Sequence record: NC_048731.1
Source of the DNA: Escherichia phage fp01
Direction: 5' to 3' (one strand)
Length of the DNA stretch: 64,000 nt
The position numbers and the translations under genes were made by a program. This document shows, piece by piece, positions 19,317-35,112 of this stretch. The notes beneath the pieces were generated by a model. That model saw only the letters and a program-made list of their open reading frames with translations, made no database searches and was not told where the DNA came from. How positions within the stretch are numbered: the first letter of the stretch is position 1; each line of letters starts with the position of its first letter.

Positions 19317-20082
19317 GTCTTGGGGCGAAACTACTGGCGGTTCTAACGATAAAATCGAATTCCTGAAGTTCAACAACGGTATCACTCGTGTTCGTATCGT
19401 TTCTGGTGTTCTTCCACGTTATGTCTATTGGCTGACTAATAAAGAGGGTAACGTAGCTCCTTTTGAATGTCTCCGTTTTAACCGTGACAAAGAGAGCTTT
19501 GTTCGTGGTAAAGCTGATCCAGTTCATGAGATGGGCTTCTTCGAGAAAGAGCTGGATAAAGATGGTAATCGTGTTCCGCTGAAACCGAAGAAAAACTATA
19601 TCGCTTTTGTTATTGACCGTTCTGATAACAAACTGAAAGTAATGGAAGTCAAGGCTACTATTCTGAAAGGCATCCAGTCTATCATGAAGCAGCTGAGCCT
19701 GGCAACTCCGTTTGATATTGATATTTCTATCGAGAAAAAAGGTAAAGGTTTCGATACTGAGTATGATGTACAGCAGATTGCTGCTATGCAGTTCCAGATT
19801 AAGCTGCAAGATCCTAACAGTGCGGAATCTAAGCAATATGCTGCGGATGTCGATCTGATCGGTGAAGCTATGTGTGATGAAGATGGCGACATCATTAAGT
19901 TCGAAAAAGTTCCTTCTCTGGAACAAACCTATCCGGTTCCTACCTATGAAGAGCAGAAAGAAGCAATTCAAGCCTTCATGGAGGGTCGTGAGAATAAAGA
20001 TGATGATGCCAAATCTGGTAATAGCAATGCAGGCTCCCAGAAAGGTATTGACTCAGAAGCTGCAAGCGATCTGGACGACTAA
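19309..20082 (+). CDS. putative ssDNA-binding protein
   Basis: Highly expressed codon usage, RBS AAGAGGA, acidic C-terminal tail (SEAASDLDD) typical of phage SSBs; sits among replication and recombination genes. Confidence 0.4.
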   Translation: MAKSWGETTGGSNDKIEFLKFNNGITRVRIVSGVLPRYVYWLTNKEGNVAPFECLRFNRDKESFVRGKADPVHEMGFFEKELDKDGNRVPLKPKKNYIAFVIDRSDNKLKVMEVKATILKGIQSIMKQLSLATPFDIDISIEKKGKGFDTEYDVQQIAAMQFQIKLQDPNSAESKQYAADVDLIGEAMCDEDGDIIKFEKVPSLEQTYPVPTYEEQKEAIQAFMEGRENKDDDAKSGNSNAGSQKGIDSEAASDLDD

Positions 20083-20087
20083 TAAAT

Positions 20088-20112
20088 AGAGGGGCTTCGG
20101 CCCCTTTCTTTT
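20088..20112 (+). terminator. rho-independent terminator
   Basis: agaggggc-ttcg-gcccctt then TCTTTTT. Confidence 0.6.
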
Positions 20113-20118
20113 TAACCA

Positions 20119-21096
20119 ATGAGAATATTATTTAGTGCTGATCATCATATCAAACTAGGACAAGATAAAGTTCCAAAGGAATGGCAGAAGCGTCGCTTCC
20201 TGATGCTAGGAGAACGGTTAAATGATATATTCCATAATCATAACTGTGATCTTCATATTGCTGGTGGTGATATACTTGATGTTGCCGACCCGTCGTCAGA
20301 AGAAATAGAACTGCTTGAACAGTTCATGTCAAGACTTGACCATCCAGGCAAAATCTTTACTGGAAATCATGAAATGTTAACTAAAACCATTTCATGTCTA
20401 TATCATTATGCAGGAGTTATTAATAAAGTAACGAGCGGGAAGTGGGAAGTAATTACCAAACCATATCGTTCCCCTGAATTTGATATTGTTCCATATGACG
20501 AAATCCATAAATCTAAGTGGAAACCATCTGAATCAAAACTATGTTTCACGCATGTTCGTGGTGAAATCCCTCCACATGTAAAACCAGAAATTGATCTAAC
20601 TAAGTATAACTGTTATGATACTGTAATTGCTGGCGATTTACATTCTTATACTAATAGCCAGACTATCGGATCTACTAGACTTCTCTACCCAGGGTCTCCA
20701 TTAACTACATCGTTCCATAGAGAACGCACAAAAGGTACAAATGGTTGTTTTATCGTTGATACCGACACATTAAAAGTAGAATGGATTGAACTCGGTGATT
20801 TACCACAACTGATTCGTAAAACAATCGGAGCCGGTGAAGAGATGGAACCTAGTGATTATGATCGTGTAGTATATGAAGTTACTGGTGACGTTGTTCAATT
20901 AAAGTCAATCAAAGACTCTGATTTATTAGATAAGAAGATTAACCATCGAGTTACTAAAGACGCTAAGTTAAATCTTGTCGATCTTGATATGTTAGGTGAA
21001 CTTGAACTTTACTTCCGTGAAGTCGAGAAGCTATCTCAAGGCGACATTGATAGAATCTTGGCTAGAGCTGCGAAATATGTCAAAGATTACAATTAA
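20119..21096 (+). CDS. SbcD/Mre11-like metallophosphoesterase nuclease
   Basis: Calcineurin-like motifs: LFSADHH, GGDILD, GNHE, GDLH. Confidence 0.75.
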   Translation: MRILFSADHHIKLGQDKVPKEWQKRRFLMLGERLNDIFHNHNCDLHIAGGDILDVADPSSEEIELLEQFMSRLDHPGKIFTGNHEMLTKTISCLYHYAGVINKVTSGKWEVITKPYRSPEFDIVPYDEIHKSKWKPSESKLCFTHVRGEIPPHVKPEIDLTKYNCYDTVIAGDLHSYTNSQTIGSTRLLYPGSPLTTSFHRERTKGTNGCFIVDTDTLKVEWIELGDLPQLIRKTIGAGEEMEPSDYDRVVYEVTGDVVQLKSIKDSDLLDKKINHRVTKDAKLNLVDLDMLGELELYFREVEKLSQGDIDRILARAAKYVKDYN

Positions 21097-22915
21097 GACA
21101 CTAAAATTTAGTAACGTTATGTCTTACGGTAAGGACATCGTAATTCATTTCGATAAGAATCCAGTTACTCAACTAATTGGTGGCAATGGGCTAGGGAAAT
21201 CCACTATTGCTACTGTTATTGAAGAATTGTTTTATAACAAGAACTCACGGGGTATTAAGAAGGACGCCCTGTTCTCTTGGTCTACTCCGAAAAAAGAGTA
21301 TGATATGCACGCTTACTTCTCGAAAGATGAAGATGAGTATGAATTGCATAAAGTAGTTAAATCAACTGCTAAAGTAACTCTTATTAAGAATGGAGAAGAT
21401 ATTAGTGGCCACACGGCAACTCAAACATACAAGATGATTGAAGAGATTATGGGTGGTGACTTCCAAACATTCACCAAACTAATTTATCAATCAGTGGGTT
21501 CCAATCTAGACTTTCTAAAAGCAACAGATGCAACACGTAAGGCTTTTCTTGTCAACTTGTTCAATCAAGAACAGTATAAAGAAATGTCAGAAACTATTAA
21601 GGCTGACCGTAAAGAAATAGCAAATACCTTAAATAATTTGCAGGGCCAAATGGCTGTAATTACGAAGATCCTTAATGGAAAGAATAATCTGGGAACTTTG
21701 CAGGAACCTGTAGAAGTACCGGAGTTTGATGAAGAGCCATTAGCACAAGAACTTACTGAATCGAAAATTAAGGCGGCATTAGCCAAGTCTCAAGAGGCTA
21801 ATATTACTAAATTGCGTAATTTGGACAAAGCTGTACAAGTTGCCGAACAATCTTTCGAACCTTTCAAAAATTTGCCCGCGCCTACTGACCAAAACGAAGA
21901 GATCTCAAGTGTTACGCGTGACCTAACGATTGTGACCTCACGTGCGGGAGAAGTTAAGAAACGTTATCAGAAGTTCAAGCAAGAGGCTTCAAATACTGAA
22001 TGTCCTACTTGTGGTACTCATCTGGATACAACTGCTGCTCAAAAAGCAATGGATATGGCTAGAATAGAATATGACCCTCTGTTCAAAGAGAAGCAATCTC
22101 TTGAAGCTAAGCTAGAACAGTTGAAGAAAGAACAACTTGAGTACGTTGCGTATACTAGAGCAAAGGATGCTTTGGATAAAGCAGTGGCAGCTAGAGACGA
22201 GTTCAAAAATTCAATGAGTGACGCCTCTTTTGAAGAACTCAATGTGCAAAACCTACAGGTGCAAATCCGACAACTAGAACAGGAAATAGCTGATGGCCGT
22301 TCTAAGGTTGCAATTGCCAAAGAGCATAATGCAAATGTCGAATTAGCCAATGCAAAATATAAAGCGAAACTAGAACAGATTGAGAAAGCTGAGGCAGAAA
22401 TGTCTGAGATTACTTCCAAACTGGATGAAGTATCAGAAGCTGTTTCTGATCTAGATATTCTGATTGCTGCATTGAAAAATCTGGTAGGGTATAAACTAGA
22501 ACATAGCGTGAAAGTATTTGAAGAGCTTATCAATAAATACCTTTCCATTATGACTGGCGGTAAGTTCGCACTTGGATTTGAACTTGATGAAACAAAATTA
22601 CAAGTAGTAATCTTCAATGATGGAAACCGTACTAGTATGGAGAATTGCTCTACTGGTCAGCAAAGTCGAATCAACCTAGCAACTCTGTTAGCTATTCGAA
22701 TGCTACTAACATCTATTAGTAAAGTTAATATTAATCTTCTATTCCTTGATGAAGTAATTAGCTTTATTGATACGAAAGGACTTGACACCCTTGTTGAATT
22801 ATTAAATGAGGAAGAAAGTCTAAATTCTATCATTGTTTCTCATGGGCATACGCATCCATTGGCCCATAAGATTACTGTCAAAAAAGATGCAGAAGGATTT
22901 TCCTACTTAGAATAA
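21077..22915 (+). CDS. SbcC/Rad50-like ATPase with zinc hook
   Basis: Walker A GGNGLGKST, long coiled-coil, CPTCG hook motif, C-terminal LFLDE (Walker B/D-loop); start set to internal ATG at 21077. Confidence 0.75.
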   Translation: MSKITIKTLKFSNVMSYGKDIVIHFDKNPVTQLIGGNGLGKSTIATVIEELFYNKNSRGIKKDALFSWSTPKKEYDMHAYFSKDEDEYELHKVVKSTAKVTLIKNGEDISGHTATQTYKMIEEIMGGDFQTFTKLIYQSVGSNLDFLKATDATRKAFLVNLFNQEQYKEMSETIKADRKEIANTLNNLQGQMAVITKILNGKNNLGTLQEPVEVPEFDEEPLAQELTESKIKAALAKSQEANITKLRNLDKAVQVAEQSFEPFKNLPAPTDQNEEISSVTRDLTIVTSRAGEVKKRYQKFKQEASNTECPTCGTHLDTTAAQKAMDMARIEYDPLFKEKQSLEAKLEQLKKEQLEYVAYTRAKDALDKAVAARDEFKNSMSDASFEELNVQNLQVQIRQLEQEIADGRSKVAIAKEHNANVELANAKYKAKLEQIEKAEAEMSEITSKLDEVSEAVSDLDILIAALKNLVGYKLEHSVKVFEELINKYLSIMTGGKFALGFELDETKLQVVIFNDGNRTSMENCSTGQQSRINLATLLAIRMLLTSISKVNINLLFLDEVISFIDTKGLDTLVELLNEEESLNSIIVSHGHTHPLAHKITVKKDAEGFSYLE

Positions 22916-22918
22916 AAC

Positions 22919-23401
22919 ATGGCTGTAGATAGTAGAGAGAAAGGTAAACGTGGTGAATATCAGGTAAGAGATATTCTACGTGAGCGTACAGGTCTTGAGT
23001 GGGAACGTGTTCCTGGCTCTGGTGCTTTTGGCCAGAGCCACGGACTAAAAGGTGACATCTACCTTCCACCACAAAGCGGACACATTAGTAGATACTGCTT
23101 CGAAGTTAAGTGGTATAAAGATGATAATATATCAAGTAATTTATTTAATGTTGGTGAATCCACTCTAGAGAAGTGGTGGCAGCAGTGCTCACGTGAAGGT
23201 GAGCAAATGAACTCCAAACCTGCATTAATATTCAAAAAAGACAGAGGACAGTGGTTAATAGCTTTGGATAGCTCAGACCCGATGGTTGACAACTTAATGA
23301 GTCGTACCCATATGGTGTTAAATAAGAAAGACATGGAAATCGTAATTGGTTTATTTGAGCCGTGGCTACATCATGCATCTGTTGAGGACTTAATTAAATA
23401 A
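22919..23401 (+). CDS. putative Holliday-junction resolvase-like nuclease (PD-(D/E)xK, Hjc-like)
   Basis: N-terminal REKGKRGE...ERVPGSGAF...KGDIY resembles the Hjc/restriction-endonuclease-fold signature. Confidence 0.4.
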   Translation: MAVDSREKGKRGEYQVRDILRERTGLEWERVPGSGAFGQSHGLKGDIYLPPQSGHISRYCFEVKWYKDDNISSNLFNVGESTLEKWWQQCSREGEQMNSKPALIFKKDRGQWLIALDSSDPMVDNLMSRTHMVLNKKDMEIVIGLFEPWLHHASVEDLIK

Positions 23402-24276
23402 TGAGTAAATCCTGGGGAAAATTTATTGAAGAAGAGGAAGCTGAAATGGCTTCCCGTCGTAACCTAATGATTGTCGATGGAACTAACTTAGGCTTTCGCT
23501 TCAAGCATAACAATAGTAAAAAACCATTTGCCTCAAGTTATGTTTCCACTATTCAGTCTCTTGCAAAATCTTATTCTGCTAGAACTACAATAGTTTTAGG
23601 AGATAAGGGGAAGTCTGCATTCCGCTTAGAGCATTTACCTGAGTATAAGGGTAATCGAGATGAGAAATACTCTCAGCGTACGGAAGAGGAGAAAGCGTTA
23701 GATGAGCAGTTCTTCGAGTATTTGAAAGATGCTTTCGAATTATGTGAAACTACGTTCCCAACTTTCACTATTCGTGGTGTAGAAGCAGACGACATGGCAG
23801 CTTATATTGTTAAGCTCATCGGGCATCTATATGATCATATTTGGCTAATTTCTACCGATGGTGACTGGGATACTTTATTAACTGATAAAGTATCTCGCTT
23901 CTCTTTCACAACACGTCGTGAATATCATCTTCGTGATATGTATGAGCATCATAATGTTGACGATGTAGAGCAGTTTATCTCCCTGAAAGCAATTATGGGT
24001 GATTTAGGGGATAATATCCGAGGTGTTGAAGGTATTGGGGCAAAGCGTGGGTATAATATTATTCGTGAATTTGGTAACGTTCTGGATATTATTGATCAGC
24101 TTCCACTGCCTGGAAAACAGAAATATATACAGAATTTAAATGCTTCGGAAGAATTGCTTTATCGAAACCTAATTCTGGTTGATTTACCTACCTACTGTGT
24201 GGATGCTATTGCTGCTGTAGGTCAAGATGTATTAGATAAATTTACAAAAGATATTTTGGAGATTGCAGAACAATGA
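23401..24276 (+). CDS. flap endonuclease / 5'-3' exonuclease
   Basis: 291 aa; FEN N-terminal acidic cluster MIVDGTNLGFR and HhH-like region GDLGDNIRGVEGIG. Confidence 0.8.
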   Translation: MSKSWGKFIEEEEAEMASRRNLMIVDGTNLGFRFKHNNSKKPFASSYVSTIQSLAKSYSARTTIVLGDKGKSAFRLEHLPEYKGNRDEKYSQRTEEEKALDEQFFEYLKDAFELCETTFPTFTIRGVEADDMAAYIVKLIGHLYDHIWLISTDGDWDTLLTDKVSRFSFTTRREYHLRDMYEHHNVDDVEQFISLKAIMGDLGDNIRGVEGIGAKRGYNIIREFGNVLDIIDQLPLPGKQKYIQNLNASEELLYRNLILVDLPTYCVDAIAAVGQDVLDKFTKDILEIAEQ

Positions 24277-24719
24277 TTAAAATTAAATTAACTCATCCAG
24301 ATTGTATGCCTAAGATTGGTTCCGAAGATGCTGCAGGTATGGATCTGCGAGCATTCTTTGGTACTAACCCTGCTGCAGATTTACGTGCTATTGCACCAGG
24401 CAAATCCCTAATGATTGACACCGGTGTCGCGGTGGAAATTCCGCGAGGTTGGTTCGGTTTGGTAGTTCCTCGTAGCTCTTTAGGTAAGCGTCATTTGATG
24501 ATTGCAAATACCGCGGGAGTGATTGACTCAGACTATCGTGGAACTATTAAGATGAACCTGTTCAACTACGGTTCTGAAATTCAAACTCTGGAAAATTTTG
24601 AAAGACTTTGTCAGCTGGTAGTAGTACCACACTACTCAACTCATAATTTTGAAATTGTTGACGAACTAGGGGAGACTGATCGTGGAGAGGGTGGCTTTGG
24701 AAGTTCGGGAAGTAAATAA
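24273..24719 (+). CDS. dut: dUTP diphosphatase
   Basis: dUTPase motifs AAGMDLRA, PRSS, IANTAGVIDSDYRG, RGEGGFGSSG. Confidence 0.85.
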   Translation: MIKIKLTHPDCMPKIGSEDAAGMDLRAFFGTNPAADLRAIAPGKSLMIDTGVAVEIPRGWFGLVVPRSSLGKRHLMIANTAGVIDSDYRGTIKMNLFNYGSEIQTLENFERLCQLVVVPHYSTHNFEIVDELGETDRGEGGFGSSGSK

Positions 24720-24741
24720 TCTACATATCAAATAAATAATA

Positions 24742-24780
24742 AACCCCAGAGGGATATCCCTCTGGGGTTTTCTTTTATTG
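24742..24780. terminator. bidirectional terminator between convergent early and late blocks
   Basis: aaccccagaggg-atat-ccctctggggtt flanked by A-rich tract on one side and T-rich on the other. Confidence 0.6.
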
Positions 24781-26904
24781 AGGTACTATCTGTACCTTTA
24801 ATTGCTTGAGTTCTTCTTCTAAGTCTTCAATCCTTTTAATAAGATCTTGAACAACATGCATAGTATCAAGAAGCATTGGAGTTGTATCAAGTTCTTTTTG
24901 TTCCTGTTCTGCCCCATTGTTATCATAGAATTTTCTAGTTTTAACATAAAGCGGTTCTATAACTTCTGTTTCCTGAGCGATAACACCTCGTCTTATACGT
25001 TGAAGATTATCGTTATTATATATGAATGTCACAAAGTTTAGATTTTTGATGTTTTCTAAAGCTTTTTCAACAGTTGTATTTTCTATAGAATGTTTAAGGC
25101 GCCTATCTGAAGTTGCATTCTTTTGTAAAGTGTATGTTTCTTCTGATCCTGGTTGCCATTTGTGGAAAAAAATATCGGAATTTAATGGTTGAATACCGAC
25201 ACGAACTCCATAAGCGTTATTAGCATCGCCAGCAATATGCCATACGGATTGTGCAAAAGATGTTCCGTTGTGATGAATCATCCCCCAGTGACACGAAGTC
25301 TTATAACCACCTTGACTAGATTGGGCACCACTAAGAAGACTATTAAAAGCGTAATTTGCTCCAATAGCCTGGTCTTCCGCGCTAAATGTACCTTTAGTAA
25401 AACCTGTTTCACTCCAAGCCATCATAGTCCCATATCTTGCTCTATATCGATCGCTACTCAGCGTACCTGTGTCATCAAAGGCAAGGTCTTTTGTCACCCC
25501 TTTTGTCTTGTTGTATACAGACAGAATCGCATAATAAAGGCCATCCATGTATGCATCGCATCGCAATCCTGCATCCGCTTCAACAACGGTGCCGATTTTG
25601 TATTGGGCCTTTACCTGTCCTGACAATGCCTTTACGCCAGAGCCTGGGCGGACAGCATCAGCATTCATTACACTCCAAGACGTATTCGCGGCAACAAAGC
25701 CACCAGAGGCACGAATCACCCAAACGCCGACAAAGTTGCGCGGAACGATTTCTGCTGCTGAACGACCATAAACAGGACTGCAGCGAGAAGCGTCAAAGTT
25801 GGTTTGTATGTACCTTGAACCAGAGCCAACCGCAGCAGGAGCGTCCCCCGAAGTTATCGACTGAAAAGCACCGTTAGTTGCCACTTGGCTTGCTAAAGAA
25901 GCCAATGTCACCATTGTGTGCGGCGCTGCGTAAGTTATATTTGGAGCGCCTGATTCAGACACAACCCCGTTGGACGATGAATTCCCGCCGTCACCCCTGC
26001 CAAATAAGGCCTGTATGGAACCAGTTTGAACACCGTTCCTGTCAGGCACTCGAAACGTTGTTGTTCCGTTACCCAAAGAATATTTACCACGCTTTGATGC
26101 GTCAGCAAGCCATTCCGCATCTGAAATCGGCGTAAGCATTTGCGCATATGCCCAAAGCTCAGGCCAGTCAGCCCTGTTAAGAAGCTGCCCATCAGAAACC
26201 ACCTCATACGGTTGAATATACGCACGGCTATCTCGAAGATGGAAATCACCGACACCGTAGTTCATCACGCCATTCATTGTGGGTCCTACTGTGCCAGTAT
26301 TAATTTTGTTCTCCACCCAACGCTTAGTTACAGCATCATAATCATTAACGGGGTCTCCCGCAAGGGGGGTAGATCCAATAGGACGAACATTTAACCACGC
26401 AGCTGCGCGATCTGCTAAATCTGATAAATTATTTTCAGTCAATAGGCTTTCGTCTTTTGTTGGCACATTATAACTTTGTCTAAAAGCTTCTTTTGATACT
26501 ACTCCAGTACCCCCTTGTTCTATAGAAAGTGCAGTGGTTAAACCTGTTAAAGATTTAATAGTTGAGTTGGCACCATCCATGTCTATACTAGCAAATCTTG
26601 ACCATGCAGTCCATGAACTGTAAAAAGATCTACTATATATCTCATTACTATTATAAGGTAAGTAAATTTGAGTACAAGAAGTTGCTAAATTGCTTGCATT
26701 ATTTTTTAAAACTAGTAATGTACCTGCAGCCGCAACAGGATAGTTAAGAGAAGTAGGAGAGTTAGCATTTTCAGATTGCCAATACTTTCCATACACACTC
26801 CCATCAAGTGTATTTAAATTTGTTCCTGTAGTAATTAAACCATATACAGGTAAAGCGGCTACATCAGTAGCCTTTAAGTTAATTTTATCAATTCTAAGAG
26901 CCAT
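24775..26904 (-). CDS. tail fibre distal subunit (LtfB-like) with C-terminal intramolecular chaperone domain
   Basis: RBS AAGGAG; C-terminal SDRRLKHSIE...coiled-coil matches the self-cleaving S74-type chaperone domain of phage fibres; GC-rich internal segment. Confidence 0.7.
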   Translation of the reverse strand: MALRIDKINLKATDVAALPVYGLITTGTNLNTLDGSVYGKYWQSENANSPTSLNYPVAAAGTLLVLKNNASNLATSCTQIYLPYNSNEIYSRSFYSSWTAWSRFASIDMDGANSTIKSLTGLTTALSIEQGGTGVVSKEAFRQSYNVPTKDESLLTENNLSDLADRAAAWLNVRPIGSTPLAGDPVNDYDAVTKRWVENKINTGTVGPTMNGVMNYGVGDFHLRDSRAYIQPYEVVSDGQLLNRADWPELWAYAQMLTPISDAEWLADASKRGKYSLGNGTTTFRVPDRNGVQTGSIQALFGRGDGGNSSSNGVVSESGAPNITYAAPHTMVTLASLASQVATNGAFQSITSGDAPAAVGSGSRYIQTNFDASRCSPVYGRSAAEIVPRNFVGVWVIRASGGFVAANTSWSVMNADAVRPGSGVKALSGQVKAQYKIGTVVEADAGLRCDAYMDGLYYAILSVYNKTKGVTKDLAFDDTGTLSSDRYRARYGTMMAWSETGFTKGTFSAEDQAIGANYAFNSLLSGAQSSQGGYKTSCHWGMIHHNGTSFAQSVWHIAGDANNAYGVRVGIQPLNSDIFFHKWQPGSEETYTLQKNATSDRRLKHSIENTTVEKALENIKNLNFVTFIYNNDNLQRIRRGVIAQETEVIEPLYVKTRKFYDNNGAEQEQKELDTTPMLLDTMHVVQDLIKRIEDLEEELKQLKVQIVPQ

Positions 26905-26913
26905 TTTAACTCC

Positions 26914-27219
26914 TTATGCCCACATGCGAACAGGTGTTTCTGGGTTTACTATAAATTTATCTAGTATAGAGAGATCAAAATCATCAATATTCATAATACG
27001 CAGATTAACGTGATATCCTTCTTGCACTACATACTCAATATCTTCTATATTTTGATACTCTGTTAAGGGTTTTGCAGGCTGACTGATAATACCGATAAAA
27101 TCAATACTGACATTTTCACAATATAAACTACCTGTTTCTTCATCTAAACTAAAGCCAAATTTTATCAAATTAATTTTCATTTCATCAGCATTAGTAAATT
27201 TTAGATATAAATCTTTCAT
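26914..27219 (-). CDS. hypothetical protein between the two tail-fibre genes
   Basis: 101-aa acidic ORF with RBS AAGGA. Confidence 0.35.
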   Translation of the reverse strand: MKDLYLKFTNADEMKINLIKFGFSLDEETGSLYCENVSIDFIGIISQPAKPLTEYQNIEDIEYVVQEGYHVNLRIMNIDDFDLSILDKFIVNPETPVRMWA

Positions 27220-27265
27220 TATAGAATCCTTAATTTTATGGGAACATTATATAATATTCCTGTAC

Positions 27266-29169
27266 TTACCGTAAGCCATTAATTTGATCATTATTTAAAG
27301 CCCTATACCATACTCGGAAATTCTTAATATGATATACAAATTTAGAAGGGGTAGGAGATGGTGATGCACCTAACCTAGACGGAATACCTGTCAAACTCAC
27401 GGGAGTACTAGTAGATTTAGCAGTTTTACCATTAAAGAAATTACTAATCTCATTCCCTGTTATTTTTTGAGCATAGGTCATAGGAGGTAGACTTTCTATA
27501 TCTGGAATAGCTAAGGTTGGCCCTGTACTAGATCTATATGTTCTTATAGTGGCATTATCAGCGCTATCACAGCGGCAGATAATGTCATACTTAGAACCTC
27601 TTACTTGCATAACTTCTACATAACTAGTATAAGGTCGTACTTTACAATTAAATTCAAAAGATACTGTGCGCTCAAAGTAGTCCGCCAGGGTTCTATAGCC
27701 GGCATTATCTGGTATACACCACCATTCATCTGCTGTTCTAGTAGTGGTGGTATCAGTGCTATTACGGATGTAAGAAGTTGGAGCTATGCCTTCCTCAACC
27801 TGTATACCCCAAATGTAGAAACCAGAAACACCATCCCCCTGGTAGACAGTAGTATTGGTATTTTTAGCCATCTGGAGTCTAAATATAGTGCTTCGACTTT
27901 CAGTGGCTGCAAAAGAAACCCAAATTCTATATATACCTCCAGTTAATCTCTCATACCCCCCTCTAATATTACTAGCAGAACCACTTGTAGCAACAGTTTC
28001 ATTTTTAATATCAAAAAACATACCAACAGTTGTACCGGAAGCTACACGTAGATATACTAAACGGTTAGCGGTATCATCTTTAACATAAGCAGAATAGCAA
28101 TAAAAAGTATCAGCAGTCAAAGATATCCATTTATCGTTGCAGTAATGCTCGCCGTCATTGGTATTCTCGGTAAACTTAGTCATCAACATTTCGCCAGTCG
28201 GGCACGCCGAAGCATTAGGAGTTGTAATAACTAGACTACCTCCAGTAATTGCTTCTGAATTAGTATATAAATTAGTGCACTGAGACTCCATTAATAAACC
28301 TTGCTTTTCAAATCTAGGTTCATTAATATCTGCAAAACACATTTTACCACTTTTATCTATATAACTGGCGGTAGTTGAGCGAGTAAAATTTGCAGATTTT
28401 GTTGGCAATTCCAGAGTTACATCATTAATTGTTGCTAAATCGTAGGGGGCCATACCAGATAATAATCTCATATCATCAGTTAAAGGTACCCAAACATCCG
28501 GATAAGGGACAGGTTCATACATAATAATACTAGCAGCAGAAGCAGCGGCGGCAGCTTCAGAAGCTTTAGCATTAATTTCAGAAGCTTTAGCGTTAGTCTC
28601 TGAAGCTTTAGCATTAGTCTCAGAAGNNNNNNNNNNNNNNNNNNNNNNNNNNNNNNNNNNNNNNNNNTTTTACTTGCTAATGCATTAGTTTCGCTAGTAG
28701 CAGCATTAGTTTCCGAGGTTTTAGCTTTGGTTTCACTAGATTTTGCATTAGTTTCTGATGCTTTTGCATTAGTCTCGGATGTTTTAGCCTTAGTTTCACT
28801 AGCTTTCGCATTAGTCTCAGATACTTTAGCTGCTGCGGCTGATGCTGCAGATCTATCCGCTGATGCAGCAGATTGAGTAGCAGATGTAGCGGACTGAGTG
28901 GCAGAGGCTTCAGAAGCTCCAGCAGAAATAGCAGCTTCCTGTTCAGAATCCTTAGCATTAAGTTCTGAAGTCTTAGCAGCTATCTCAGAAGCTTTTGCAG
29001 CTGCAGCAGATTTAGCCGTAGCCTCAATAGAGGATACTAATTCACTTGCAGTAATAGAGCTAATAGAATTACCTAGAGTTACAGTATATCTAGGAAATTT
29101 ACTAGCAGTAGCTTTAGTATCATCAATATTTAATATCTGTTGTACAATAATCTTAGTAGTTACTGCCAT
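27266..29169 (-). CDS. L-shaped tail fibre proximal subunit (pb1 N-terminal/LtfA-like), interrupted by an assembly gap
   Basis: The 418-aa and 229-aa track ORFs are the same reading frame on either side of the N-run; SETNAKA-type repeats continue in frame; N-terminus matches the T5 fibre N-terminus as recalled. Confidence 0.6.
28540..28860 (-). repeat. in-frame tandem 21-nt coding repeats (heptapeptide A-K-A/T-S-E-T-N array)
   Basis: Repeated gcattagtctc(a/t)ga(a/t)gctttagc units on both sides of the gap. Confidence 0.8.
28627..28667. other. assembly gap (41 N)
   Basis: Run of n characters inside a tandem coding repeat. Confidence 0.95.
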
Positions 29170-29591
29170 TATTTAGTTACCCCATCACTGATAAATACTT
29201 TACCCTCCATTATGCGAAAGGAGCTAATTGCAGATCCTACAACATCTCTAGTCATGATTATATCATAGTATCCTGCTAATCGCTGACGGGGGTTATACTT
29301 ATCTCTATCTTTAGATGCTTTAGCTCCTAGATTTTCCACGGATTCTACTGGCAAACTTATAGCCACAGCCCCCTGGGCAGCATCAATAATATTAGTAGTA
29401 AAGGATGCTAGGGTTTCTGCGTTCTCTTCTAGACTACTTTTTATAACACCTCTTAGAGAATACCCCGTTAAATTAACAGGGGTATTTGTAGGTGGGTAAG
29501 TACTATCATCAACATCTAAGAACTGCATCATTAAACCATATGGTACTTTCTCATCTATTACTAAGTCTATAACTCTATTTTCAGTACTCAT
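29169..29591 (-). CDS. tail collar protein (p132-like)
   Basis: 140 aa, directly downstream of baseplate genes and upstream of the fibre gene. Confidence 0.45.
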
Positions 29592-29594
29592 TAT

Positions 29595-31667
29595 TTACCT
29601 TATATGGATGTACCCGTTTTGCAGGTCTATCTTCATTCTGTAATAGGCTTCCGGGTTGGAGGATAGTGCTGCTGCACGATCATATATAATATTTACACCG
29701 ATTTGGGATAGGAAAGCATTACCAGCAACTATTTTACTAGCAGTTACAGTACCATTAACTATCATATCACCGTGTAAGACCATAGCAGGGCTAACCCATG
29801 CCGAGCCATTCCATTGTCTAGTAAATGCTGTTTGCGGAGCATTACTATTAAACTCAGTTAATACATCGTATTTAACAGGCGGGGAACCAAAATTACTTTG
29901 GAAGAAGGAGTTAGCACGACTATCGTCCCATCCTCCTAATCCGGCCACTCCAAGAGAATACATGCCCGGACCTCTCTGGCCATCCGCACCAATAGTACCT
30001 TCAGTACCACTCCACTGAACAACATCCGCCCAACTAGTACCTTCCAATAATTTATTTGTAACAGGGTCTAGAGTACCAGTTGTAGCATAAATATTCTGAG
30101 TCATATCAGTACGGTTAGGTGGTGTTTTAGACCATCCAGGAGGCGGATAATCTTGCTCCAATGGTTTTGCTGGCAAACTTTTACCAAGTTTATAAACAAA
30201 TACTGTTTGTTTACCCTGCATCCCAGTACCAATATCTACGTCTCCATTAGGAGTACCAATAACAACTCCACTAGAAATACGAAGAGTATCGCCATCATAG
30301 CGTATCCACTGAGTAGCATTACCTATATCTAACTTTGGCTTAGCAGAAGTGTTATCCATTCCCATCCAGATACCAGATTTTGTATCTCCCCAAGTTTTAC
30401 CTTGAGTATAGATTGCCGGGTTATCTTGGCCAGTTAGATTAGTCATTACAAAGTTAGCAGCATTGATAGTTTTAGTTATAATACTACCATCAACGTTAAC
30501 TATCTTTTTAATAGGGTCGAAAGATATTGGTGCTTTTCCTTCTGCATCTAGGAGGCCTATATTAATAGCACCAGTAGCAGCATCGATTAAAAATGTTTGC
30601 TTCCACGTGGAGCCATCTTTGATCTTACCTTTAATATACGCATAGTTTACTTCTATACCAGTTTCATTAACAAAGCTATTATCAAGATGGGTGTCCTCAT
30701 TTAGTATAAAAGTCTGTACTGCAGAATCTGTAACATCTTGAGCATTTGGCCCCCACGCTATAGAGGAGACCTTAAATTTATGCTCAATTTTCCACGGAAA
30801 CGATATAATAGTTGCCGCTTGTGCAGCACCTACGTTAATTTTTTGGGCCTTAGTCCATCCAGTTCTTGCAAATTCTGTGGAATCTATATAAGAAACGACA
30901 AATTCCCGAACATTGGCTCCAGATCCCCTATTCCACTCCCACTGTACACGAAGGTCATATCTCTCTTTACCATCTGCAATTCTTGCAGCCTTGAAGGTAA
31001 TATTGCTAGGAGCAGTGGGCGGTACAAAGTTATACTCTACAGTAAGAACTTTAGAAAATTCAAAGTATCCAGAGGAGTCTACCGTTACACCATCAGGCAT
31101 AGTAACTTGCCCTGATATGCGTACTTTATAATCACCAATAGGGACACCACCAAATCTAATAGTGGGGGATAACGGACCTACATAATATTTTACCCACGTA
31201 CTATTTGAAGGTTGAGTACTTTTTAACTCAATAGTACAGTAGCTTGCTTCACCAGTTGTTTCTACGACAACTATCGGTGCACCTACCCCAACATCCACAG
31301 GTTCTGATTCAGATCTTGCTGCAACAATTGTTGGCTTCTCTTTTGTCCTAAAGTTAGTCTCATTAGAGAGATTGATACCAATCTTAGCCTCTAACAGTTC
31401 AGAATCAATAATAGAGTCGTAAAAAGCCCCTTGAATCTCATAAGAGGTTGAAGGGGTCAGATTATTAATCATTACGAAGAAAGTATCTATACCAGTATAA
31501 TCACGTCTATCTATACTTTCTCCTGTCTTTAACCAAAAAGATCTGCCAATAACGTCATAGTCAGTATATATAGAATGCTGGACATATGCCATTGTATATC
31601 CAGTCATTATACTATTTAAGACCATTTTGGCTGGTGCATTATTCGAAATCATTAAATGGATGCCCAC
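29595..31667 (-). CDS. baseplate / central fibre protein (pb4-like)
   Basis: 690 aa; position between baseplate hub and collar; Gly-rich beta-structure signature. Confidence 0.55.
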   Translation of the reverse strand: MGIHLMISNNAPAKMVLNSIMTGYTMAYVQHSIYTDYDVIGRSFWLKTGESIDRRDYTGIDTFFVMINNLTPSTSYEIQGAFYDSIIDSELLEAKIGINLSNETNFRTKEKPTIVAARSESEPVDVGVGAPIVVVETTGEASYCTIELKSTQPSNSTWVKYYVGPLSPTIRFGGVPIGDYKVRISGQVTMPDGVTVDSSGYFEFSKVLTVEYNFVPPTAPSNITFKAARIADGKERYDLRVQWEWNRGSGANVREFVVSYIDSTEFARTGWTKAQKINVGAAQAATIISFPWKIEHKFKVSSIAWGPNAQDVTDSAVQTFILNEDTHLDNSFVNETGIEVNYAYIKGKIKDGSTWKQTFLIDAATGAINIGLLDAEGKAPISFDPIKKIVNVDGSIITKTINAANFVMTNLTGQDNPAIYTQGKTWGDTKSGIWMGMDNTSAKPKLDIGNATQWIRYDGDTLRISSGVVIGTPNGDVDIGTGMQGKQTVFVYKLGKSLPAKPLEQDYPPPGWSKTPPNRTDMTQNIYATTGTLDPVTNKLLEGTSWADVVQWSGTEGTIGADGQRGPGMYSLGVAGLGGWDDSRANSFFQSNFGSPPVKYDVLTEFNSNAPQTAFTRQWNGSAWVSPAMVLHGDMIVNGTVTASKIVAGNAFLSQIGVNIIYDRAAALSSNPEAYYRMKIDLQNGYIHIR

Positions 31668-34501
31668 TCCACAGACTGTTCTCCATCATCTCCTTCCGCT
31701 CTAATACGAAAATATAGTTTTCTATTGATTCCTAGAGCATCACTATTATGAAGAGCAAAATCTGCCTTATTATACATTAATAAATAGTCATAAGTATACT
31801 GATTTTCAATACGTACACTTCTTAGCATTCTATTCTGGGAATCATAGATTTCCAGAGTATAGAATATACTTTCTATTATATCTTCTTCTGGTATCCTATC
31901 CCAAGCTAGTTTTACATCTGGGCCTACAAATTCAGTTACATCCCCAGAAGCCGTATTAGTTACCCTAAAATTAGATACTACGCTTAGGTTTTTAGCAGAG
32001 TTAAGTTCTATAGATAATGTTACTGGAGAACTTCTCCTACCATTTATATCCACAGCCCTTATTTCAAATATTGCTAAACCTGCAGGCTCTCCAATTATCT
32101 CTTGGATCATGCGTTCATTGGGATTTGTTTCTAGTTGCTGCACAATATAAGGCTCAGCATGACCGGAATGCACGATAGAGTAATAAACTACGTTATTAGT
32201 TAAACTTGGAAGCCAGGATAACTCACCATTTTTTCCTATGGAACCAACTAAACCACCAGGTGTAGGAGTATATTTAAAATCTCTAGGAGGAAGAACATTG
32301 TTACTAATATCTGGTATATCATTACCACTATTATCTACTTGATCAGAGTTGATAAATACATCTTCCCCATACTCCTGTAGAGTAACATTTATCTTTCCTT
32401 CCCTAGAGTTTTCGACTTCATCTACTAAAAAGTACTTCTTATCCCATCCGTAACGGTCGTATGTAAATGCAATAGCATCATTAGGCTCAATACCAATGAA
32501 TTGATATGGTAAAGAAAATGAGAGGGTTCTAGAATACCTAGATTTCTTAAGTTCTCTGTCTGCAAAACTTCTAGCAGTATAGTAGTTAGTTATATTTGCA
32601 AAAGATAATTGTAATTTTTTGTCTAAATTTTTATCTTGCTCTTTATATCTAGAGTTATAAAAGGTAATAGAGTTAGTTTTCCAGCTAAGAGCTGGGTCTA
32701 CGATAGATGCTTGAACTGAGTTGAATTTATTTCTACCAGTAGTATCTGATAGCTCTAAATCACCATAAGTATCCAGAAAATTAATTTCTAATGGAGTATT
32801 AGAATATTTTTCTACAGTAATCCTATATTGACCCGATAAGTTGTTAATAGCCCCACCGTAGGATTCTAGTAAACCTTGAACATTTTTAAATACTGATTCA
32901 GATGTATCTAGAATAGTATTCATTTGTACTATTTGTCTATTTTCTGCTAATGGATCAGTCCACCCAACATATCTCCAGTATGGCTGCCAGGATACTTGGT
33001 AGGATTCATCTATAATATCTAGGATAGCAGCTTCTTGTACCAATTGTTGGAGAGGGAACTGATCAATAGCAATGTTTGCACCATACCTATCTGAAGTTAA
33101 GTAGTCAAGTGTTTGCCAAATACCATTTAAACTAGTACTATTAGCAGTTACTCTACCATCAGAATGGTAGATTTTTATCTTCTTACCCTGAATCTCAGCA
33201 CTAACTTCTGGAATCTCAGTTCTATTTTCATTAATAGTAAAGCGTACTACCGCGTATGCAGTATCTAATAGTTTATATCTAGCATCCCAGTACTCAGGCC
33301 CATTACCGTTCATACTTTGGAGATAGAACCCACGCTCCTTCGCTATATTTACTAATACTTCAGAAGCCGTTTGATCAGCTTTTCCATGATAAGTCCAAAT
33401 CCTTATATCACCATTACCATCGTTATATTTATATTCCTGGCCATGCACAGAAGGACTACTAGAAGACATTCCTGATGCTATTCTCTGCATGGTGTCTCCT
33501 GCTACTTTTTTAACACCGAAACAGGTTCTAGCAGAGCTATCATTAGAGTCCATACAAATCATAGGGTTATCCCCGAAGGAAAAGTCAAGAAAACCGTCTA
33601 TCTCTCCTTCAGCAAAAGCATATACTACGTAAACTATATTAGGATTGTGTAATTCCGTATCCGCAAAAATAGGTATTCCCGGTATTTTCTGTACACCATA
33701 AACTACTGGTATATACTTAGCAGCAAGGTTAAAATCTATATCTACTTCTTTAGTAACAGTCTCATAATACTTTTTAAGACTATAACTTCTAGATAGTCCA
33801 AATAGCTTTTTCTTAGACTTTAGCTTGTATCTTTCTTCCTGTACCTGATACTTTGCTAGAATAGAGATACTTTTATTGGCGTGAAAGAAACCGTAGTCTT
33901 CTTGGTACTCAAGTCTTTTAGCCCCATTAGATGGAAGTAATTGTCCTGCTACAACTTCAAGCCCTCTATGAGAAGCATCATCAGTAAATCTACCATTAAC
34001 CCTATCAAAATCATAGAATTGGTTAGAACAATTCCAAGTAATTGTGGAGGTTCCAACTCCCGAAGTACTAATATTATCCTTAATACCTCCACCAGTAATT
34101 CTACCTCTAAAGTATAATAAAGGCCCATTTGTGTCTGGGTCTACAGGTAAAATAGAACCATCCTCTGTAATAATTGCTTGATGAATTGATACTAGTCTAT
34201 CTAAAAAGGACACACCATTCTGCACTAATTTCAGTACTTCATCCTGCGCTGTACCTGTAATAGTAAAAGATAGGCTGCCAATAGATAAATCTCTATTTTG
34301 TTTATGTGTGCTAATAGACTTAACTTTACCGGCCTGGTACAGAATACCGTTATATAGTACATCTCTAAAATAGTCAGTTAAGTAAATAAAAGCAGTACTA
34401 GTACCAGTAGAGCCGGGTAATTCTAGAGAAATTAGACTAGCAGTTTTTATTCTGCTATTATTTTTTAAGTAGTTTCTAGCACTATCTAATATTTTTTTCA
34501 T
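31652..34501 (-). CDS. baseplate hub protein (pb3-like)
   Basis: 949 aa immediately downstream of the distal tail protein gene. Confidence 0.6.
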   Translation of the reverse strand: MKKILDSARNYLKNNSRIKTASLISLELPGSTGTSTAFIYLTDYFRDVLYNGILYQAGKVKSISTHKQNRDLSIGSLSFTITGTAQDEVLKLVQNGVSFLDRLVSIHQAIITEDGSILPVDPDTNGPLLYFRGRITGGGIKDNISTSGVGTSTITWNCSNQFYDFDRVNGRFTDDASHRGLEVVAGQLLPSNGAKRLEYQEDYGFFHANKSISILAKYQVQEERYKLKSKKKLFGLSRSYSLKKYYETVTKEVDIDFNLAAKYIPVVYGVQKIPGIPIFADTELHNPNIVYVVYAFAEGEIDGFLDFSFGDNPMICMDSNDSSARTCFGVKKVAGDTMQRIASGMSSSSPSVHGQEYKYNDGNGDIRIWTYHGKADQTASEVLVNIAKERGFYLQSMNGNGPEYWDARYKLLDTAYAVVRFTINENRTEIPEVSAEIQGKKIKIYHSDGRVTANSTSLNGIWQTLDYLTSDRYGANIAIDQFPLQQLVQEAAILDIIDESYQVSWQPYWRYVGWTDPLAENRQIVQMNTILDTSESVFKNVQGLLESYGGAINNLSGQYRITVEKYSNTPLEINFLDTYGDLELSDTTGRNKFNSVQASIVDPALSWKTNSITFYNSRYKEQDKNLDKKLQLSFANITNYYTARSFADRELKKSRYSRTLSFSLPYQFIGIEPNDAIAFTYDRYGWDKKYFLVDEVENSREGKINVTLQEYGEDVFINSDQVDNSGNDIPDISNNVLPPRDFKYTPTPGGLVGSIGKNGELSWLPSLTNNVVYYSIVHSGHAEPYIVQQLETNPNERMIQEIIGEPAGLAIFEIRAVDINGRRSSPVTLSIELNSAKNLSVVSNFRVTNTASGDVTEFVGPDVKLAWDRIPEEDIIESIFYTLEIYDSQNRMLRSVRIENQYTYDYLLMYNKADFALHNSDALGINRKLYFRIRAEGDDGEQSVEWASI

Positions 34502-35112
34502 AGACTTTCCCGTAAATTTAATGAGATGTTGGAATATGTTCCGTTATTATTTAGTGTAGATCCAAAAGCATCACCATTCATGAGTTTTGTTCTAAATAGT
34601 ATTCCATTAAATACTGGCTTCTCCGCTCCAGTAGTAGTTATAAATAAATCAGGGTATAAGTTTATAGACCATGTATTACCTGATTTGTTAAATGATGTTA
34701 TTTTATATACTTTTGGGTGGTTAGACAGCTTAAATAGATCCCCCGGTTTTGGAGTACCTGTAAGAAGTCCTTTTGTATCCATAGTTACATTAGAACCCTT
34801 CTGTCCAGCAGGTATATTTACTAGACTAGTATTACCTCTAACTCTAAAAGCTTCGTATTGGGGTAATATAACATCTATGTAACCACCAGTCCTTTTGTAT
34901 TCTAGAATAAAAGCATCTAGAACACTATATTCATCTGGAAATAATTCTGGATAAGAAATATTTATACCCCAGTATTGAGCAGATACCTTAACTTCGTTAA
35001 CTTTACCATTTGGTAACTCATCACGAATTACTGGGTCATTATCAATCAGGTTAACACTTTCGAATCCTAAGCCTGAAAGTTCTGGATTCGTGTATGGGTC
35101 TGGTAATCTCAT
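34498..35112 (-). CDS. distal tail protein (pb9-like)
   Basis: 204 aa directly after the tape measure gene; preceded on the minus strand by TTGATA-17-TATAAT and RBS. Confidence 0.55.
   Translation of the reverse strand: MRLPDPYTNPELSGLGFESVNLIDNDPVIRDELPNGKVNEVKVSAQYWGINISYPELFPDEYSVLDAFILEYKRTGGYIDVILPQYEAFRVRGNTSLVNIPAGQKGSNVTMDTKGLLTGTPKPGDLFKLSNHPKVYKITSFNKSGNTWSINLYPDLFITTTGAEKPVFNGILFRTKLMNGDAFGSTLNNNGTYSNISLNLRESL

Follow-up and report, generated by a model that had tools for sequence, protein, structure and literature searches.

A T-shaped tail fibre gene with a GC-rich shaft and first receptor-binding domain in the T5-like phage fp01, very probably assembled by recombination from at least three sources

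The window, a stretch of 64,000 nucleotides of sequence record NC_048731.1, is DNA of the T5-like phage fp01 (Tequintavirus). Its gene at 24775-26904 encodes the distal lateral tail fibre subunit. The 709-aa product matches phrog_6921 'tail fiber' (E 8e-193). The lateral-fibre locus is made up of the following features.

29169-29591, minus strand: LtfC-like collar protein (Pfam LtfC, E 3.5e-13)
28480-29169 and 27266-28522, minus strand: proximal fibre, split into a 229-aa ORF and a 418-aa ORF
26914-27219, minus strand: small 101-aa ORF
24775-26904, minus strand: gene for the distal lateral tail fibre; its 709-aa product and the fp01 'tail fiber protein' (P0018) are 100% identical
24741-24770, unstranded: GC-rich hairpin with a perfect 13-bp stem and runs of T on either strand, located in the gap where the dUTPase and fibre genes converge

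The proximal fibre gave tail fibre N-terminus matches to phrog_5481 and phrog_24369. The order LtfC, proximal fibre, 101-aa ORF and distal fibre is the same in HMD-P3, IME178, SP15, KookSpook and IrisVonRoten. The hairpin is probably a bidirectional terminator. Rfam returned weak two-strand noise matches at its position.

The distal fibre gene was divided into five regions.

26425-26904, minus strand: N-terminal domain, aa 1-160; AT-rich (GC 0.34, GC3 0.17)
26140-26424, minus strand: conserved shaft and first half of a collar-like motif, aa 161-255 (NLSDLADRAAAWLNVRPIGSTPLAGDPVNDYDA...WPELWAYAQ)
25345-26154, minus strand: RBD1 cassette, codons 251-520, gene nt 751-1560; GC about 0.50, GC3 about 0.42; core of the GC-rich tract
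25111-25419, minus strand: second receptor-binding region, aa 496-598; GC 0.41, GC3 0.25, near the phage background
24775-25110, minus strand: C-terminal intramolecular chaperone (Peptidase_S74), aa 599-709; PF13884, E 3.6e-12

The N-terminal domain has 95-100% nucleotide identity to IME178 and HMD-P3, and the same form occurs in these two phages and in the T5-like Logan/ENA contigs P0019 and P0028. Residues 1-160 showed weak similarity to the R2 pyocin fibre structures 6ct8 and 6cl6 (E 0.01-0.03), and this domain is presumed to attach the subunit to the proximal fibre. The upstream portion of the GC-rich tract is the shaft (GC 0.49, GC3 0.39). It is conserved in Tequintavirus, Wifcevirus and DT57C LtfA/LtfB with 73-94% nucleotide identity across lineages, and many columns from D184 to Q255 are invariant in 47 homologues. 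The cassette starts within the collar-like motif, of which it holds the second half, and runs through the variable RBD1 into the beginning of RBD2. Residues 496-598, whose DNA is 97% identical to that of Salmonella phage ABTNLsp4, may correspond to the 'T5-like RBD2' of T-shaped fibres, judging from colinearity with Gp24 and with the fibres described in PMC11990801. In the chaperone domain the PF13884 alignment spans aa 599-649, and the S-D-x-x-x-K motif (Ser-Lys dyad) lies at the cleavage site, with S599, D600 and K604 invariant in the 47 homologues. Foldseek matched this domain to the MyRF ICA domain (7dc3, E 2e-5) and the endosialidase chaperone (3gw6). It is predicted to cut itself off once the trimer has assembled.

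RBD1 of T-shaped fibres has been placed in the Gp12-like superfamily (SSF88874) from trimer predictions for homologues (PMC11990801). The fp01 fibre has a collar-type motif, TTFRVPDRNG, and its match to Pfam Collar (E 1.3e-3) scored 19 bits, short of the cutoff of 24. AlphaFold models of the monomer, for a fold that is itself trimeric, had a mean pLDDT of 50 at full length and 58 for RBD1 only. When both monomer models were compared with the PDB by Foldseek, significant matches were confined to the chaperone domain and Gp12 was absent. Gp12 was also absent from a profile search of PDB sequences, whose matches were limited to DT57C LtfA, chaperone domains and, weakly, pyocin fibres; LtfA is modelled only at its N-terminus in PDB 8hqz.

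A first-pass annotation of the sequence had described about 1 kb of the distal fibre gene as richer in G+C than its AT-rich flanks, with codons of the GCG/CGC/CTG type. The sliding-window GC profile bore out the first part of this description. GC is 0.495 at 25400-26420 against a mean of 0.390 (sd 0.026, all 1021-bp windows of the 64 kb; z about 4.3), and the top 1021-bp window of the whole 64 kb starts at 25403. The runner-up peak away from the tract reaches 0.474 at 54314-54320. A single minus-strand ORF, the 709-aa frame at 24775-26904, holds the entire GC-rich tract at codons ~162-502. Within the fibre gene GC3 falls from 0.41 inside the tract to 0.20 outside it (Fisher p = 2e-9). This contrast is strong inside the gene, yet on its own the tract GC3 is only ~1.8 sd over the genome, since the 50 other ORFs in the window have a GC3 of 0.30 ± 0.06 with a maximum of 0.485.

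Codon-family fractions in the tract were raised over the background for GCG (0.24 vs 0.11), CGC (0.20 vs 0.10), GGC (0.32 vs 0.15), GTG (0.30 vs 0.11), CCG (0.29 vs 0.18) and ACG (0.17 vs 0.07). CTG, in contrast to the first-pass description, was not enriched (0.11 vs 0.17 as a fraction within the amino acid's codon family). The GC excess of +0.104 is divided among codon positions 1, 2 and 3 as 18%, 46% and 36%. Because positions 1 and 2 carry most of it (64%), about two thirds of the excess is amino-acid composition, with more Gly, Ala, Val and Arg in the tract and less Lys, Ile, Glu and Leu. The remaining excess is codon usage near Wifcevirus levels.

Breakpoint analysis with relatives, a check that the first-pass annotation had proposed, was carried out with mismatch counts and the maximum chi-square method, and two switches were located, at gene nt ~745-770 and ~1471-1560. 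They define two features within the gene, and a third was delimited by homology to Wifcevirus.

26137-26160, unstranded: upstream recombination breakpoint, where an IME178-like block gives way to a P0019-like cassette at the WPELWAYAQML codons
25345-25434, unstranded: downstream crossover zone, where the P0019-like cassette and an ABTNLsp4-like block are both near-identical to fp01
25414-26376, minus strand: block in which the DNA is homologous to the T-shaped fibre genes of Wifcevirus (Bas98-101 and Wifcevirus contigs from Logan), coinciding with the GC-rich tract

IME178 is 97.5% identical to the fp01 gene at nt 1-750 and ~50% identical beyond (p = 3e-134). The T5-like Logan contig L015 (P0019) is 99.8% identical at gene nt 751-1560, with 2 mismatches in 810 nt, and the 8.5 kb of this contig around the cassette is 93.7% identical to fp01. 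ABTNLsp4 is 95.7% identical from nt 1471 on and 55% identical before (p = 3e-93). The upstream switch at gene nt ~745-770 was read from mismatch counts per 30 nt. Downstream, P0019 identity runs to gene nt ~1560 and the 96% identity of ABTNLsp4 starts at nt ~1471; this zone matches the drop in GC3 at codon ~500. These alignments show a three-part recombinant gene with sharp breakpoints, composed of an IME178-like part, a P0019-like cassette and an ABTNLsp4-like part. The shaft is near-identical to IME178 (93-100% in most 20-codon windows, minimum 87%), and therefore position 26420 marks a long-established domain boundary, not a recent breakpoint. The upstream crossover probably relied on homology within the shaft. 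The GC-rich kilobase encodes the shaft (aa 161-255) and RBD1 (aa ~251-500), two things and not one acquired block, with 25345-26154 as the recently exchanged cassette.

Similarity within RBD1 is discordant with genome relatedness. HMD-P3 and IME178 (Tequintavirus), the closest genomic relatives, are ~95% identical to fp01 over 20000-35000, yet over RBD1 codons 256-400 they are merely 54-56% identical. Over the same codons the Wifcevirus myoviruses, which are unrelated and have 68-kb genomes, are 88-89% identical, and the P0019 cassette reaches 99.8%. A BLAST search with the segment alone, as had been suggested for finding the related fibre family, led to Wifcevirus Bas98-101, which match 25403-26400 at 82-84% over ~1 kb by megablast and blastn. 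The maximum chi-square block against Bas101 spans gene nt 529-1491, with 84% identity inside and 52% outside. Identity between Wifcevirus and fp01 RBD1 is 97-100% in some 60-nt windows. Overall the two differ by 11-12% of nucleotides, and ~30% of amino-acid-identical codons differ synonymously.

The RBD1 module is present in 422 phage records. A protein-database search with the RBD1 segment alone returned 17 fragmentary matches and missed known homologues; the full-length query worked. An IMG/VR peptide-pattern scan for a nearer donor found no relative. A resident-prophage donor at 50% GC was rejected, as blastn against 5426 complete E. coli genomes gave 1 match, at 72%. In the RBD1 tree, whose lineage labels were assigned solely by the lengths of proteins and contigs, T5-like, Wifcevirus and other sequences are intermixed, and the fp01 allele group, on the same labels, is sister to the Wifcevirus clade and not nested inside it. 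At amino-acid-identical codons 256-400 GC3 is 0.41 in fp01, 0.26 in IrisVonRoten and 0.46-0.49 in Wifcevirus. The fp01 allele, at 0.41, lies between the T5-like and Wifcevirus genome averages (Bas98 has a genome GC of 0.464 and a gene GC3 of 0.49 ± 0.05). Among 12 T5-like single distal fibre genes (DT57C LtfA/LtfB excluded) RBD1 allele GC3 ranges from 0.23 to 0.42; in DT57C LtfB it is 0.57. No amelioration, in the form of an AT-ward synonymous bias of the fp01 copy, was found against Bas98, as third-position differences were 32 GC vs 24 AT. The proposal that a receptor module was acquired by recombination from another phage lineage therefore stands in part. Module homology, recombination and cross-lineage sharing support it, while a single imported block is contradicted. 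Neither the tree nor the synonymous differences gave a donor or a direction of transfer: the fp01 group is sister to the Wifcevirus clade and shows no AT-ward drift.

We consider it very probable that this T-shaped fibre, with its GC-rich shaft and RBD1, is encoded by a gene assembled by recombination from at least three sources. The joins would have been made by homologous recombination within conserved linkers, bringing together an IME178-like N-terminal part and shaft, an 810-bp RBD1 cassette that circulates in T5-like phages and has deeper relatives in Wifcevirus fibres, and an RBD2 and chaperone block like that of Salmonella phage ABTNLsp4. The fp01 RBD1 allele carries GC-ending codons typical of phages of ~46% GC such as Wifcevirus, unlike the T5-like backbone of 39% GC. 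The cassette may have come into the T5-like phages from a lineage of higher GC, and the exchange may have taken place by recombination during co-infection. Alternatively, the cassette could have originated in T5-like phages or in a third pool and been exported to Wifcevirus, its codon usage reflecting an older or other source and no Wifcevirus-to-T5 transfer. We regard this as possible though doubtful. The sister position of the fp01 allele group and the absence of an amelioration signal against Bas98 both favour export, as do the allele GC3 of 0.39-0.45 in Wifcevirus, which is under the Wifcevirus gene average of 0.49, the presence of the module in many other phage groups, and the GC3 of DT57C LtfB, which is above that of Wifcevirus. 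On the other hand, the allele GC3 is ~1.8 sd over the T5-like background and ~1.5 sd under Wifcevirus, and in IrisVonRoten the corresponding allele shows T5-like codon usage, which is what longer residence would give. A prophage pool is also unlikely with one 72% relative in 5426 E. coli genomes.

The GC-richness might also be a mere by-product of the composition of a Gly/Ala-rich fibre domain and be silent on horizontal origin. The 64% share of codon positions 1 and 2 in the excess agrees with this, and the shaft is GC-rich in every homologue irrespective of host genome (0.46-0.53 in 15/15 homologues compared). However, composition does not account for the doubling of GC3 in the tract, and the GC3 difference from IrisVonRoten at amino-acid-identical codons largely refutes it. 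T5-like RBD1 alleles moreover vary in GC3 from 0.23 to 0.57, and the similarity pattern conflicts with genome relatedness, so a by-product is very unlikely. It is still more improbable that the mosaic is an assembly chimera or sequencing artefact. The fp01 assembly is a Nanopore/Illumina hybrid (PMC9961651) and the adjoining proximal-fibre gene is broken in two where a repeat tract lies; against this, the 709-aa ORF is intact, the junctions are located at conserved codons, and independent assemblies show them. P0019 is shared to codon ~510 and P0028 to ~400, and P0020 has the shared RBD1 with a different N-terminus. Hardly credible at all is a second element in the tract, such as a repeat, a structured RNA or a gene overlapping on the opposite strand. 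The tract does contain four antisense ORFs (84-146 aa), but none of them has a Pfam match, and long open frames opposite a GC-rich coding sequence are to be expected. Rfam was blank over 25000-26900, as was a repeat search of the tract, and differences from Wifcevirus in the annotated frame comprise 65 synonymous and 24 amino-acid-changing codons. Recombination of at least three sources thus remains our preferred reading.

T5-like lateral tail fibres determine the O-antigen types that a phage can penetrate, and Wifcevirus isolates with an RBD1 ~90% identical in amino acids depend strictly on the E. coli O16 O-antigen. RBD1 of fp01 may bind an O-antigen-type glycan. The fp01 RBD2 and chaperone region has 96-97% nucleotide identity to the Salmonella phage ABTNLsp4. 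We wondered whether the chimeric dual-RBD fibre contributes to the reported polyvalent Escherichia/Salmonella host range of fp01; this is a speculative and rather unlikely suggestion. If true, a single fibre would combine two binding heads, one from a pool of E. coli phages and the other from a pool of Salmonella phages. In the paper on the fp01 genome, polyvalence was put down to the pb5-like protein and FhuA alone, and the fibres were never mentioned. A map of blocks onto binding heads aids host-range prediction and phage engineering. The boundaries at ~26150 and ~25400 have been used repeatedly by natural recombination and should therefore provide ready-made junctions for RBD1/RBD2 swaps. 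The spread of allele GC3 from 0.23 to 0.57, for one domain at one locus, could be used as a marker of residence time in T5-like genomes.

Humolli et al. 2025 (PMC11990801) described T-shaped fibres, with a Gp12-like RBD1 and a T5-like RBD2, from Tequintavirus, Wifcevirus and Gordonclarkvirinae and noted that the RBDs of these fibres are 'frequently transferred horizontally'. In DT57C and DT571/2 a recombination swap of the divergent LTF region changes host range (PMC4728585). Modular tail-fibre exchange, including that between Tequintavirus and Wifcevirus, is thus already published; the present results leave current understanding unchanged and add no new mechanism.

The T5 fibre pb1 is encoded at the same locus after LtfC/p132, and both pb1 and the fp01 fibre have an S74 chaperone. 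The 229-aa ORF of fp01 is the homologous N-terminal anchor, whereas pb1 is a single 1396-aa protein with one binding tip. A pb1-type single fibre of ~1400 aa was ruled out for fp01, in which the distal protein has 709 aa and a separate ORF of 229 aa carries the T5-type N-terminus (phrog_24369, residues 2-167). Sequence comparison with pb1-type fibres gave no homologue of the GC-rich RBD1 module. The fp01 tract aligns to residues 528-876 of DT57C LtfA (E 2e-132; Golomidova 2016, PMC4728585; PDB 8hqz). The shafts are nearly identical, S74 chaperones are present in both, and the distal parts of DT57C are likewise GC3-rich. DT57C differs in having two chaperone-bearing fibre proteins, with the 1076-aa LtfA fused to a T5-type N-terminus, and its RBD1 is ~50% identical to that of fp01. 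A DT57C-type branched LTF was ruled out because S74 is found only on the 709-aa protein and the proximal ORFs (229 and 418 aa) are without it.

Wifcevirus is a myovirus with a 68-kb genome of 46% GC, unlike fp01. Gp114 of Wifcevirus ManiWeber (Bas99) is 54% identical to the fp01 fibre over aa 21-703, and the C-terminal S74 chaperone is present in both fp01 and Wifcevirus fibres. RBD1 is shared with Wifcevirus fibres at ~90-93% of amino acids and 84-89% of nucleotides, with a block GC of 0.51-0.52 and a GC3 of 0.40-0.45, like fp01. The Wifcevirus fibre of 777 aa has another type of baseplate anchor, ~32-36% identical to fp01 aa 1-160, and its RBD2 is ~50% identical. Gp24 of Tequintavirus IrisVonRoten (Bas32) has 67% amino acid identity to the fp01 fibre without gaps over aa 150-709 and the same order of shaft, RBD1, RBD2 and chaperone. 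Both genes adjoin a convergent dUTPase gene and follow the proximal fibre and a small ORF. The fp01 fibre is longer (709 vs 574 aa) by an extra 150-aa N-terminal domain, and the two RBD1 alleles differ, with 63-68% nucleotide identity in the core and a GC3 of 0.42 in fp01 vs 0.23 in IrisVonRoten. Colinearity, the chaperone and gene order are all found in fp01, and by these sequence features its fibre appears to belong to the T-shaped dual-RBD group.

A GC plateau of 0.47–0.53 extends from about 25400 to 26450 in the sliding GC profile, against 0.31–0.42 in the surroundings. The first-pass annotation had flagged 25400–26420 as a GC-rich mosaic segment of the distal tail fibre gene, and the profile is indeed far from uniform. 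This 1021-bp segment has a GC content of 0.495, the highest level among 1021-bp windows over all 64 kb (mean 0.390, sd 0.026); the top window begins at 25403 (z about 4.3). A single 709-aa ORF on the minus strand (24775–26904) contains the entire tract, which covers codons about 162–502. GC3 climbs from about 0.17 to 0.40–0.46 around codon 160 and drops to about 0.26 around codon 500, giving 0.41 in the tract vs 0.20 in the remainder of the gene (Fisher p = 2e-9). GC3 of the 50 other ORFs in the window averages 0.30 ± 0.06. The maximum, 0.485, belongs to a 135-aa DNA-binding protein (phrog_1725, A2-like; 56289–56696, minus strand), and the second GC peak, 0.474 at about 54320, falls in a 559-aa 'DNA transfer protein' (phrog_1745, T5 A1-like; 54275–55954, minus strand). 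The window thus has compositional outliers other than the fibre segment.

Codon positions 1, 2 and 3 contribute 18%, 46% and 36% of the tract GC excess (+0.104). Since positions 1 and 2 carry the larger share, most of the excess is due to amino acid composition, with Gly, Ala, Val and Arg up and Lys, Ile, Glu and Leu down. A true codon usage shift is superimposed on this effect. GCG/CGC/CTG-type codons had been noted; GCG and CGC, together with GGC, GTG, CCG and ACG, are about two-fold enriched in the tract, but CTG is not (0.11 vs 0.17 in the background). The antisense ORFs of the tract gave no Pfam match, and searches for Rfam families and repeats found no other element there.

The 709-aa product is 100% identical to the Escherichia phage fp01 'tail fiber protein', and window 20000–35000 shares about 95% identity with the Tequintavirus phages HMD-P3 and IME178. 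Fibres are absent from the text of the fp01 genome paper (PMC9961651). The minus-strand gene order of the fibre locus is:

pb3-like and pb4-like genes
LtfC-like collar protein (Pfam LtfC)
proximal fibre
101-aa ORF
709-aa distal fibre gene

The sole Pfam match in the distal fibre is a C-terminal Peptidase_S74 intramolecular chaperone (aa 599–649), with S599, D600 and K604 invariant across 47 homologues. The only solved-structure relative found by sequence is DT57C LtfA (8hqz), residues 528–876 of which align to fibre aa 151–490; the 8hqz model covers the LtfA N-terminus only. The fibre is colinear with IrisVonRoten Gp24 (67% identity, gapless, aa 150–709) and Wifcevirus ManiWeber Gp114 (54% identity). 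Humolli et al. 2025 (PMC11990801) described the 'T-shaped' lateral tail fibre with these two as its exemplars: it carries a Gp12-like first receptor-binding domain (RBD1), a T5-like second one (RBD2) and a chaperone domain. Judged from sequence, the GC-rich tract matches the shaft and RBD1 of this architecture. In a search for the Gp12-like fold Pfam Collar was sub-threshold; AlphaFold models, of the monomer only, were low-confidence, and Foldseek matched the chaperone domain alone.

The AT-rich N-terminal domain (window 26500–26850, aa 17–135) has weak likeness to R2-type pyocin fibre structures 6ct8 and 6cl6 (E 0.01–0.03) and is homologous to Wifcevirus fibre aa 104–190 (about 33–40% identity). 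Knob-like domains are unusual at this end of a distal fibre. At its other end the gene is convergent with the dUTPase gene. Between them, at 24741–24770, a GC-rich palindrome forms a perfect hairpin of 13 bp, with T-runs on both strands; it is probably a bidirectional terminator and also gave weak two-strand Rfam noise matches (His_leader, NsiR1).

A codon-level comparison set the fibre gene against 18 homologues taken from GenBank phages and Logan/ENA contigs, and the best match changed from block to block:

gene nt 1–750: IME178 (T5-like), 97.5% inside and about 50% outside (p = 3e-134)
gene nt 751–1560 (window 25345–26154): P0019, on 110-kb T5-like Logan contig L015, 99.8% (2 mismatches/810 nt)
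gene nt 1471–end: Salmonella phage ABTNLsp4 (T5-like), about 96% inside and 55% outside (p = 3e-93)

Identity to P0019 is 80–88% just upstream of the middle block and about 55–65% downstream. The 8.5 kb of its contig around the gene are 93.7% identical to the window; thus the cassette is far closer to P0019 than the background is. The gene has thus been put together from three parts by recent recombination among T5-like phages. Crossovers map to window about 26137–26160, at conserved WPELWAYAQML codons, and about 25345–25434, and each junction is found independently in other occurrences. Two further contigs share the fp01 RBD1 allele with different partners (P0028 departs after codon about 400; the P0020 N-terminus is short). 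Inside RBD1, the stretch VWVIRASGGFVAANTSWSV (window 25645–25765, codons 381–420) is near-invariant in the 47 homologues. Several alleles, that of P0028 among them, change similarity here, indicating an internal crossover point that divides RBD1 into two exchangeable halves.

The shaft (aa 161–255) is GC-rich in all homologues (GC 0.46–0.53) and in fp01 falls in the IME178-like block. The upstream edge of the tract, at about 26420, thus marks an old domain boundary rather than a recent breakpoint. The first-pass annotation, which proposed a receptor-recognition module acquired by recombination from a different phage lineage, was right in substance: the module is recombinant and shared with Wifcevirus. 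However, the GC-rich kilobase was not imported in one piece: it combines a conserved shaft with an 810-bp cassette.

The segment is not equally present in relatives. At RBD1 codons 256–400 the nearest genomes, HMD-P3 and IME178, are only 54–56% identical, whereas Wifcevirus myoviruses (68 kb) are 88–89% identical, with some 60-nt windows at 97–100%. The maximum chi-square similarity block against the Wifcevirus Bas101, window 25414–26376 (84% inside, 52% outside), nearly coincides with the segment originally flagged. A tblastn search placed the module in 422 phage records, among them Gordonclarkvirinae, T7-like phiKT and PGT2, and phages of Yersinia and Vibrio. Only 1/5426 E. coli genomes carries it (72% identity). 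Its pool is virulent phages, not prophages.

BLAST of the segment had been proposed as a way to find the donor fibre family. Bas98, Bas100 and Bas101 are the only megablast matches covering the whole tract. In an RBD1 neighbour-joining tree the fp01 group (P0018, the fp01 fibre, with P0019, P0020 and P0028) stands as the sister group of a clade made up mainly of Wifcevirus and does not nest within it. No closer RBD1 donor was found in IMG/VR. Over codons 256–400 fp01 (GC 0.51, GC3 0.42) resembles Wifcevirus alleles (GC 0.51–0.52, GC3 0.39–0.45). Among T5-like alleles GC3 is 0.23–0.27 in IrisVonRoten, phC17, ABTNLsp4 and IME178, 0.37–0.38 in SP15 and KookSpook, and 0.57 in DT57C LtfB. At codons with the same amino acid in all three proteins GC3 is 0.41 in fp01, 0.26 in IrisVonRoten and 0.46–0.49 in Wifcevirus; codon usage tracks allele lineage rather than protein sequence. 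The Bas98 genome has a GC content of 0.464 and its long genes a GC3 of 0.49 ± 0.05. Composition favours an RBD1 source at about 46–50% GC. Synonymous third-position differences from Wifcevirus have no AT-ward bias in fp01 (32 GC vs 24 AT), and the cassette may have been exported from T5-like phages or have come from a third source.

The proximal fibre gene (27266–29169, minus strand) is split into ORFs overlapping by 43 nt in different frames:

28480–29169, minus strand, 229 aa
27266–28522, minus strand, 418 aa

The IME178 counterpart is a single 729-aa ORF, about 330 nt of which are missing from the window inside a 21-nt (heptad) tandem-repeat tract (28499–29010). The split could be genuine or a frameshift/assembly error in the repeats; the former is conceivable because HMD-P3, SP15 and KookSpook are also annotated with two ORFs. 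The C-terminus of the 418-aa ORF (27266–27470) has a sub-threshold Laminin_G_3/ConA-like lectin match (E 2.9e-4, 21 bits vs cutoff 27.6), which fits the extra 'galectin-like' domain reported in the IrisVonRoten proximal fibre. This putative lectin-like region may be a third glycan-binding site.

In relatives, HNH endonuclease genes occupy differing sites in the recombination-gene cluster (D11–D15) adjoining the fibre locus, a cluster that contains none in the window:

L005, 121–597
contig L015, 8597–9004
L016, 7904–8413

Such mobile endonucleases could promote local recombination. The blocks would be exchanged through homologous recombination in co-infection, with presumptive homology arms in the conserved shaft, the conserved VWVIRASGGFVAANTSWSV stretch and the chaperone region. 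RBD1 would bind a surface glycan, and the chaperone domain would be cleaved away after trimerisation. Related Wifcevirus isolates are strictly dependent on the O16 O-antigen, although the authors were unable to name the RBD responsible (PMC11990801). In DT57C and DT571/2 a recombinational swap of a divergent LTF region switched host range (PMC4728585), supporting the functional meaning of fibre exchanges. Tail fibre mosaicism, including the Tequintavirus–Wifcevirus link, is already published, and fp01 adds a new, well-resolved case.
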